Positions 59,340 through 59,445 of a DNA stretch of 64,000 bases are shown one piece after another. The stretch is taken from sequence record OR352953.1, one strand, 5' to 3'. The notes under the pieces were generated by a model, which was not told the DNA's origin, searched no databases, and was given only the letters and a program-made list of their open reading frames with translations. Positions within the stretch are counted from its first letter, which is position 1, and the number at the start of each line of letters is the position of its first letter. This DNA is from Escherichia phage AV123. A program made the translations under genes and the position numbers.

Positions 59340-59445
59340 GCCTAGTAGGGTATTTGGTAATTCCGAGGCCATCAAAGCCTGAAAAATATGTTAGACCGCT
59401 TTGTCTAACTAAATACGAAATATGGTTCGATTCCATAACTAGGCT
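59340..59445 (+). ncRNA. 106-nt tRNA-like RNA (canonical acceptor and T-arm, extended body; possible TCA anticodon)
   Basis: acceptor GCCTAGT/ACTAGGC and T-arm TATGG-TTCGATT-CCATA are canonical; body ~30 nt too long, contains 7-bp hairpin GTTAGAC/GTCTAAC and loop CATCAAA. Confidence 0.35.

Follow-up and report, generated by a model that had tools for sequence, protein, structure and literature searches.

What kind of RNA, if any, is encoded at positions 59340-59445 of the plus strand in the transfer RNA (tRNA) cluster of Escherichia phage AV123 (OR352953.1), where sequences resembling the two ends of a tRNA flank an unusually long body? The stretch of this genome that we analyzed, 64,000 nucleotides (nt) long and hereafter called the window, belongs to Justusliebigvirus (Stephanstirmvirinae, phi92-like) and, over 3 kb, shares 99.4% identity with Escherichia phage arall. 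The locus, about 106 nt long and without annotation in the arall record, apparently is a real gene for a tRNA-shaped RNA of about 106-109 nt, the fold of which is under selection. As to its role, we tentatively favor a non-decoding accessory tRNA mimic that would act on a host tRNA-binding factor.

The principal evidence comes from an alignment (A3) of 31 distinct sequences drawn from GenBank, IMG/VR and metagenomes, in which 99.7% of the cells in the acceptor, D, anticodon-like and T helices are paired and double-sided changes are found in 11 of the 21 pairs. None of 500 shuffles matched the observed percentage of paired cells, the number of double-sided cells or the covariation score, and 2 of 500 matched the count of pairs changed on both sides; because the 31 sequences are related by descent, this control overstates their independence, and the sounder evidence is provided by the number of distinct pair types and by the slid controls, in which pairing drops to 33-52%. 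Moreover, the elbow pair G19:C56, formed by the third base of the D loop and the third base of the T loop, is G,C in 21 sequences and U,A in 10, with zero exceptions, and this covariation implies an L-shaped RNA with a tRNA elbow. The same helices are predicted by RNAalifold when run unguided, and the minimum free energy (MFE) fold of the window copy recovers the acceptor stem, the T arm and the hairpin of the variable region, with z = -2.68 (3 of 200 shuffles as good).

A previous reading, made from the sequence only, had listed the acceptor stem, the canonical T arm, the 7-base-pair (bp) hairpin and the 4-bp stem with the loop CATCAAA, all of which are present with the sequences given in Table 1; the D arm is the element that this list omitted. 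The tRNA-like structure with an extended body proposed there is borne out by the fold and by covariation. The accompanying statement that the body is about 30 nt longer than any standard tRNA holds against a 76-nt class I tRNA, whereas the excess over the 85-90-nt class II tRNAs of the same cluster is only about 15 nt. A tRNA with an insertion, one of the candidates offered, is a poor description, since non-standard features also occur in the D arm, at position 8 and in the anticodon arm.

Of the canonical tRNA features, the RNA displays the 7-bp acceptor stem, the 5-bp T stem, the T loop UUCGAUU and the covarying elbow pair, and lacks the 17-nt anticodon arm with U33 and the U8/A14 core with a D loop of 7-11 nt. 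The D stem forms 5 of 6 pairs in the window copy, with one U-U mismatch, and 6 of 6 in most relatives; since its two inner U-A pairs are invariant, the D arm can also be read as 4 bp closed by an 8-nt loop, UUUGGYAA, in which position 14 is U. The variable region measures 39-40 nt (31 nt in Vequintavirus and Avunavirus) and consists of GAAAA(A)UAN, a hairpin free in sequence, and NRAAUAC-AUA. In the 5' flank of this region, the G and AAA are invariant in all 31 sequences and the fourth A is nearly so, being replaced by U in Salmonella phage UTK0002. The hairpin itself is a weak stem of 3-4 bp with a 12-14-nt loop in some members, and three MFE folds place it elsewhere. No pairing partner for the A-rich flanks, kink-turn, loop-E motif or pseudoknot with the anticodon-like loop was found to be conserved across the subfamilies. 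An encoded CCA end occurs in 21 of the 31 distinct sequences and is missing from the copies of Justusliebigvirus, Vequintavirus and Avunavirus. As the discriminator, 23 sequences have U, five have A and three have C.

Models of known tRNAs detect this RNA poorly. ARAGORN makes no call on the window copy, and the Rfam tRNA model RF00005 does not match it at the gathering score; among the relatives, RF00005 recognizes one Avunavirus copy only (33.1 bits, against a gathering score of 29), and ARAGORN labels the Vequintavirus copies 'tRNA-???'. By contrast, a covariance model (R1) derived from the alignment scores the members at 93-118 bits and ordinary tRNAs at no more than 26 bits in 540 kb of tRNA-rich phage DNA, with class II tRNAs as the top matches from outside the family (21-26 bits). 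A transfer-messenger RNA was not called by ARAGORN either, and there is no G3:U70, the 3:70 pair being C-G, A-U or U-A.

When the window copy was used as a blastn query, 30 near-identical Justusliebigvirus records were retrieved along with weak matches in Erwinia phage Hena1 and in the N4-like phage UTK0002; with the Hena1 and UTK0002 copies as queries, the family grows to about 160-200 phage records. It includes Justusliebigvirus, Henunavirus, Mydovirus, Seunavirus (PVP-SE1, SSE-121) and Avunavirus; most Vequintavirinae genera and one N4-like phage are represented, metagenome contigs contribute Vequintavirus-type copies, and the copy number is one per phage genome region. To find the metagenome members, a pattern was used in which TTTG..AA...CG.GG, AATAC and GGTT.GATTCC were fixed, so that the invariance of these motifs among them is by construction; the BLAST-derived members, free of this selection, carry the same motifs, and every covarying position was N in the pattern. 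When IMG/VR was scanned with CTAAATAC and the T loop, most of the matches were unrelated tRNAs, of which several resembled amber suppressors (CTA), and a pattern that combined the D loop with CATCAAA returned chiefly chance matches in coding DNA. A pattern search of one genome each from 185,579 species of bacteria and archaea gave no matches, nor did a blastn search of 5,426 E. coli genomes for a host tRNA mimicked at the sequence level. Judging from these searches, the family, of which no earlier description was found, appears to be confined to phages; its members are located within the tRNA clusters of large virulent enterobacterial phages.

The element is also dispensable and horizontally mobile. 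Its dispensability follows from its absence from phi92, Nernie and KKE7M: in KKE7M, a deletion between CTAG repeats, one in each acceptor strand, removed exactly the element, and in Nernie and phi92, it is missing along with a spacer of about 30 nt. About 30 records have the element, compared with about 55 records at the level of Justusliebigvirus for a neighboring protein gene. Between UTK0002 and Hena1, a 114-nt element with 88.6% identity is all that is common, the flanks being unrelated, and the presence of such a self-contained module suggests that the RNA works without lineage-specific phage partners. Where it is retained, the element is strongly conserved, with at least 99% identity among 28 Justusliebigvirus records versus 96-99% over the surrounding 3 kb.

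Does this RNA decode? The anticodon-like arm is 15-16 nt long in all 31 sequences, compared with the canonical 17 nt, and its stem and loop differ among the subfamilies. In the window subfamily, which comprises Justusliebigvirus, Henunavirus, UTK0002 and three metagenomic lineages, a 4-bp stem carries the loop CAUCAAA or UAUCAAA; in Seunavirus and Mydovirus, the stem is 5 bp and the loop is CAUCCA, with the variants CCUCCA, CCGCCA, CAGCCA, CUUCCA and CCUCAA; and in Vequintavirus and Avunavirus, a stem of up to 6 bp carries AGGAUUUUUAAUCCU or AGGAUUUAUAAUCCU, closable to a triloop (UUUUUAA or UUUAUAA when read as 7-mers). Depending on the number of pairs counted, the loop size is 3 to 8 nt, and the position of U33 is A, C or U in most of the sequences. 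Over 111 nt, the three Mydovirus-type copies FENT2, K54lambda1.1.1 and L090 differ in two loop bases only (AU, CG and UU). The sequence-only reading had suggested a UCA anticodon and, with it, a suppressor or Sec (selenocysteine)-like tRNA; the UCA triplet is indeed there, and the proposal is weakened by A33, the 4-bp stem, the 15-16-nt arm and the variation of the loop. Within the family as a whole, UCA is confined to one lineage, where it occupies a non-standard loop that has A instead of U33. In this phage, TGA is an ordinary stop codon: in the 64-kb window, it ends 13 of the 68 long open reading frames (ORFs), and a search for read-through yielded in-frame extensions of 1-47 codons, none of them convincing.

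Among known RNAs, the closest in kind are the species 1 and 2 RNAs of phage T4 (rnaC and rnaD), and bacterial tRNA-Sec is the closest in architecture, with four of its defining features failing. The T4 RNAs are small stable RNAs of puzzling function that are likewise encoded in a phage tRNA cluster beside true tRNAs, and in rnaC the T arm, GGTTCGAATCC, is of the tRNA type and the end resembles an acceptor; however, they are 119 and 139 nt long and do not form the cloverleaf with a Sec-like D arm described here. Thus, a T4-style small stable RNA, also among the candidates named earlier, comes nearest of the three in kind and not by homology, the covariance model R1 having given no match on T4 70908-71171 (in T4, only tRNA-Thr and tRNA-Leu score, at 20-24 bits). 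With bacterial tRNA-Sec (RF01852), the RNA shares a D stem of 6 bp closed by a 4-nt loop, a long extra arm and, in the window subfamily, a loop close to CUUCAAA. In a permissive local search, no Rfam model scores higher than this one, with 29.4 bits for the window copy and 27-39 bits for relatives; its gathering score is 47, and about 30 bits are attained by ordinary phage tRNA-Ser genes as well. The differences are that tRNA-Sec has 8/5 acceptor/T geometry and the family 7/5, an eighth pair here being A-A or A-C; that the discriminator is U, A or C instead of G73, the main determinant of serylation by SerRS (PMC9976931); that the element has A33 and a 4-bp anticodon stem, the UCA loop being absent from most of the family; and that its variable region is about twice as long and has conserved single-stranded flanks. 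The class II tRNAs of the same clusters (Leu, Ser, Tyr) are similar in their long variable arm, 7/5 geometry and canonical T loop, and differ in that the element has A8 for U8, a 4-nt D loop, a shortened anticodon arm and 16-20 conserved unpaired nucleotides beside the variable hairpin as opposed to 3-4. Finally, phage tRNAs that counter tRNA-targeting defenses, namely, T5 tRNA-Lys, which neutralizes PARIS, and anticodon-loop variants, are cited in PMC12916289 (its refs 50, 59). Like the element, these are phage-encoded accessory RNAs of the tRNA type from tRNA clusters and are altered in the anticodon loop or close to it, and the Vequintavirus copies have a loop (UUUUUAA) near that of tRNA-Lys; unlike the element, the arm of which is non-standard and which is known here from sequence, they are otherwise canonical decoders that replace a cleaved host tRNA.

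The genomic context resembles that of a tRNA gene. The window cluster contains 15 tRNAs called by ARAGORN, two of which directly precede the element; the 2-nt spacing after tRNA-Leu makes co-transcription likely, and the element follows its upstream tRNA about as closely, by 2-5 nt, in Hena1, UTK0002, Klebsiella phage DP and PVP-SE1. Near-consensus sigma-70 promoters, with TTGACA, a 17-18-nt spacer and an extended -10 element, are located between tRNA genes at 59479-59507, 59619-59648 and 60939-60968 (+). The first of these apparently starts the next tRNA unit and therefore marks the end of the unit that contains the element; such promoters between individual tRNA genes imply that the cluster is not a single operon and consists of several short transcription units. 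Because of the 2-nt spacing, the U-CCA end in most members and the flanking sigma-70-type promoters, the processing context can be considered tRNA-like.

Conservation in this family is limited to the surfaces that tRNA-handling proteins read, namely, the minihelix of acceptor and T stems, the elbow and the core, whereas the anticodon arm is off-size and variable, so the RNA probably is not a regular decoder. Under the reading that we tentatively favor, that of a non-decoding accessory mimic, the element would be transcribed together with tRNA-Met and tRNA-Leu, cut by RNase P at G59340 and subjected to 3' trimming or CCA repair, as for the neighboring tRNAs; the resulting mimic would then occupy or divert a host tRNA-binding factor. 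The preferred target would be a tRNA-directed defense or toxin enzyme acting at the acceptor end, the elbow or the D region, with a maturation or charging enzyme being equally possible. In being optional and horizontally exchanged, the gene resembles typical anti-defense genes. Published defenses cleave tRNAs at the acceptor stem, the CCA tail, the D loop or the anticodon loop, and the three phage groups in which this RNA occurs (Vequintavirinae, Stephanstirmvirinae and Schitoviridae) are all restricted by retron Eco2 (PMC12916289). On the phage side, a T4-like RNA healing-and-sealing module of adjacent genes lies at 50862-52752 (-), about 7 kb from the tRNA cluster, and this repair module (kinase, ligase and phosphoesterase) together with the tRNA-cutting defenses makes an arms race a plausible setting.

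Several observations weigh against such a mimic, and some of them favor instead an aminoacylated adaptor on an unusual chassis, that is, an opal (UGA) suppressor or Sec-like tRNA with UCA in this phage and UCC/GCC (Gly), UUU (Lys) or UAU (Ile) elsewhere, an explanation that we consider unlikely. A stoichiometric decoy is inefficient against a catalytic toxin unless binding is tight, and neither a description of this RNA in the literature nor an Rfam family for it was found. A decoy with a free loop does not predict that AUCAAA should be identical in all eight distinct sequences of the window subfamily while the stem covaries; because of this invariance, a weak UGA-reading role in that subfamily remains conceivable. 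When the invariant G-G is counted as a fifth layer of the stem, the arms of the window type and the Vequintavirus type attain the canonical 17 nt. In some lineages, triplet and discriminator fit the bacterial identity sets (PMC9976931) for Gly (UCC/GCC, U73, G1-C72, C2-G71) or Lys (UUU, A73), with A73 found exactly in the UUU lineage and NCC going with U73, G1-C72 and C2-G71; this hints at charging, the matches representing few independent events and not amounting to a statistical test. An adaptor would further agree with the Sec-like D arm and the best Rfam match to tRNA-Sec, with a loop, CAUCAAA, that differs from the tRNA-Sec consensus CUUCAAA at position 33 only, with the Avunavirus copy that exceeds the Rfam tRNA gathering score, and with the GenBank records of Hena1, where the element is labeled 'tRNA-TERM, tRNA-sup(tca)', and pEp_SNUABM_01, likewise tRNA-sup(tca). 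What makes it unlikely, nevertheless, is the replacement of the near-universal U33 by A33, the 4-bp stem and the 15-16-nt arm throughout the family, the capacity of most members to form loops of 3, 5 or 6 nt, and the hypervariability of positions 33 and 34 among otherwise identical copies. The tRNA-Sec score below gathering is shared by tRNA-Ser genes, and the 7/5 fold and U73 disagree with tRNA-Sec and its G73 (PMC9976931); TGA ends 13 of the 68 ORFs, with short in-frame extensions; Seunavirus and Mydovirus phages already have a canonical tRNA-Gly(UCC); and the gene is dispensable. A broader form of the charged RNA, to which we assign a somewhat lower probability still, is a portable tRNA chassis charged by host synthetases, with triplet and discriminator re-tuned in each lineage (NCC/U73 for Gly, UUU/A73 for Lys, UCA/U73 here); if real, such a chassis would either decode, as an opal suppressor in this phage, unseen by tRNA-cleaving defenses, or serve as bait for toxins that attack charged tRNAs.

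The remaining explanations are less probable. That the fold acts only in cis, recruiting RNase P and 3' trimming to end the tRNA-Met/tRNA-Leu transcript without any function as a free RNA, seems improbable. The element usually is the last of a tightly spaced tRNA run, followed by a spacer and a promoter, and RNase P reads the acceptor/T minihelix and the elbow, yet the neighboring true tRNAs already offer such sites; cleavage by RNase P requires neither the invariant A-rich flanks nor the G-G pair, the D stem or the constant arm length; in UTK0002, the element is placed between two tRNAs with 5-6 nt on each side; and it has moved as a self-contained module. An orthogonal charging pair, in which the RNA would be the cognate substrate of a class II synthetase-like protein of the phage, is highly improbable. 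The 190-aa (amino acid) protein in question, encoded at 26528-27100 (-), is phi92 gp051, annotated as 'histidyl tRNA synthetase', and has no Pfam match; it is present in this genome together with the RNA, and its AlphaFold2 (AF2) model (predicted local distance difference test, pLDDT, 76.5) resembles the catalytic domains of PylRS and PheRS-alpha (Foldseek E = 5e-5, TMq 0.5-0.6). The pair is rejected mainly because the distributions of protein and RNA do not match: the protein occurs throughout Stephanstirmvirinae, even in phi92, Nernie and Phapecoctavirus, where the RNA is missing, and is undetectable in RNA-bearing Vequintavirinae and in UTK0002. Besides, the structural match is weak, at 10-15% identity, and proteins with class II-like folds can have functions unrelated to tRNA. 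Least probable of all is that the locus is a decaying tRNA pseudogene, or that the hairpin with its A-run is an intrinsic terminator of the minus strand. Although tRNA finders miss the element, the gene is sometimes deleted, and a scan marks the minus-strand hairpin and T-run at 59409-59390 as terminator-like, a pseudogene is largely refuted by the compensatory changes in four helices plus a tertiary pair, which indicate purifying selection, and by an identity higher than that of the surroundings in the 28 Justusliebigvirus records. The terminator is ruled out by the many members with weak 3-4-bp stems and 12-14-nt loops, which could not terminate, and the neighboring genes are on the plus strand.

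These findings bear on the current view of phage tRNA clusters as part of an arms race with tRNA-cleaving defenses, given that annotation of these clusters hinges on tRNA finders. The element is present in well-used model phages, namely, BASEL Bas60 PaulScherrer, EmilieFrey, PVP-SE1 and Vequintavirus-type relatives, and yet is unannotated or called small hypothetical proteins. It reopens the question, about 50 years old, that was raised by the T4 species 1 and 2 RNAs, namely, what purpose non-decoding tRNA-like RNAs serve. This question is now testable, with variants that have the element (arall, PaulScherrer) and lack it (phi92, Nernie, KKE7M) in one genus and an RNA small enough for expression in trans. 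The family merits an Rfam entry, which would correct the 'tRNA-sup(tca)' annotations.

Table 1. Parts of the tRNA-shaped RNA gene and nearby features in the window
Feature	Position	Strand	Evidence and remarks
Acceptor stem, 5' strand, GCCUAGU (GCCTAGT)	59340-59346	+	Perfect 7 bp with 59438-59444; 5/7 pairs compensatory, 100% of cells paired (31 sequences)
Linker A8, G9	59347-59348	+	Alignment A3; A8 invariant, U8 in canonical tRNA
D arm, 6-bp stem GGUAUU/AAUUCC, 4-nt loop UGGU	59349-59364	+	Three pairs covary, 98.9% of cells paired
Invariant G between D arm and anticodon-like arm	59365	+	Alignment A3; faces invariant G at 59381
Anticodon-like arm, 15 nt, stem AGGC/GCCU, loop CAUCAAA (59370-59376)	59366-59380	+	Outer pair covaries (A-U, G-C, G-U)
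Variable region, 5' flank, A-rich, GAAAAAUAU	59381-59389	+	Conserved (alignment A3)
Variable-arm hairpin GTTAGAC-CGCTTT-GTCTAAC, 7 bp, 6-nt loop	59390-59409	+	Hairpin here in almost every member, stem sequences unrelated
Variable region, 3' flank, UAAAUACGAAA	59410-59420	+	AAUAC invariant (alignment A3)
T arm UAUGG-UUCGAUU-CCAUA (TATGG-TTCGATT-CCATA)	59421-59437	+	100% of cells paired
Acceptor stem, 3' strand, ACUAGGC (ACTAGGC)	59438-59444	+	Pairs with 59340-59346
Discriminator U, then UCA (degenerate CCA)	59445-59448	+	Window copy is U-UCA
tRNA-Met(cat), tRNA-Leu(taa), directly upstream of the element	59145-59337	+	ARAGORN; element begins 2 nt after tRNA-Leu
Promoter-like site TTGACA-18-TAAGAT, before small ORF, tRNA-Met, tRNA-Leu and element	58812-58841	+	Consensus scan; putative role
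Promoter-like site TTGACA-17-TATAGT, just downstream	59479-59507	+	Consensus scan, 11/12 matches
Polynucleotide kinase, 134 aa	50862-51266	-	tRNA repair module
RNA ligase, 310 aa, GTG start	51267-52199	-	tRNA repair module
Phosphoesterase, 183 aa	52201-52752	-	tRNA repair module

A number of additional observations were made on the element's surroundings. A 100-aa ORF on the minus strand (59134-59436) overlaps tRNA-Met, tRNA-Leu and the element, and in several GenBank relatives small 'hypothetical proteins' are annotated over the element; in view of the RNA covariation, the small ORFs over the element are almost certainly spurious. Directly upstream of the tRNA cluster, at 55659-58357 (+), genes for a phosphoribosyl pyrophosphate synthetase-like protein and a nicotinamide phosphoribosyltransferase form a salvage pair for nicotinamide adenine dinucleotide. 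Another protein, of 176 aa (20975-21505, -), is labeled 'putative aminoacyl-tRNA synthetase' in PaulScherrer; it has no Pfam match and a best Foldseek E of 0.17, so that the label is unsupported and the protein was rejected as a partner of the RNA, and its neighbor at 20151-20963 (-) belongs to the SIR2 family (Pfam E = 1e-22).

The cluster harbors a second non-canonical tRNA, at 59519-59600 (+), which is not called by ARAGORN and scores 38.6 bits with the Rfam tRNA model, with the anticodon UCU (Arg). It has a 7-bp acceptor stem, 7 nt in place of the D arm, a normal anticodon arm and a variable hairpin, CCGA-GUAA-UUGG, with a GNRA loop, and copies with 83-87% identity, mostly unannotated, are found in Mydovirus, Felixounavirus, N4-like and jumbo coliphages. 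At 62037-62118 (+) lies a candidate for a third unusual tRNA, which was neither called by ARAGORN nor matched in Rfam at the gathering score; its anticodon arm is UAUGG-CUCCAAA-CCAUA (CCA, Trp), D and T arms are present and the CCA end is encoded, with about 10 nt between the acceptor and D stems, an imperfect acceptor stem and a fold (z = 0.5) no better than those of shuffles. In a metagenome contig (L093; ERZ808232 NODE-18, 151.9 kb), positions 7862-7934 encode what ARAGORN calls 'tRNA-Pyl', of the amber-suppressor type with the anticodon CTA, which ends a locus that also bears a copy of the window-type element.

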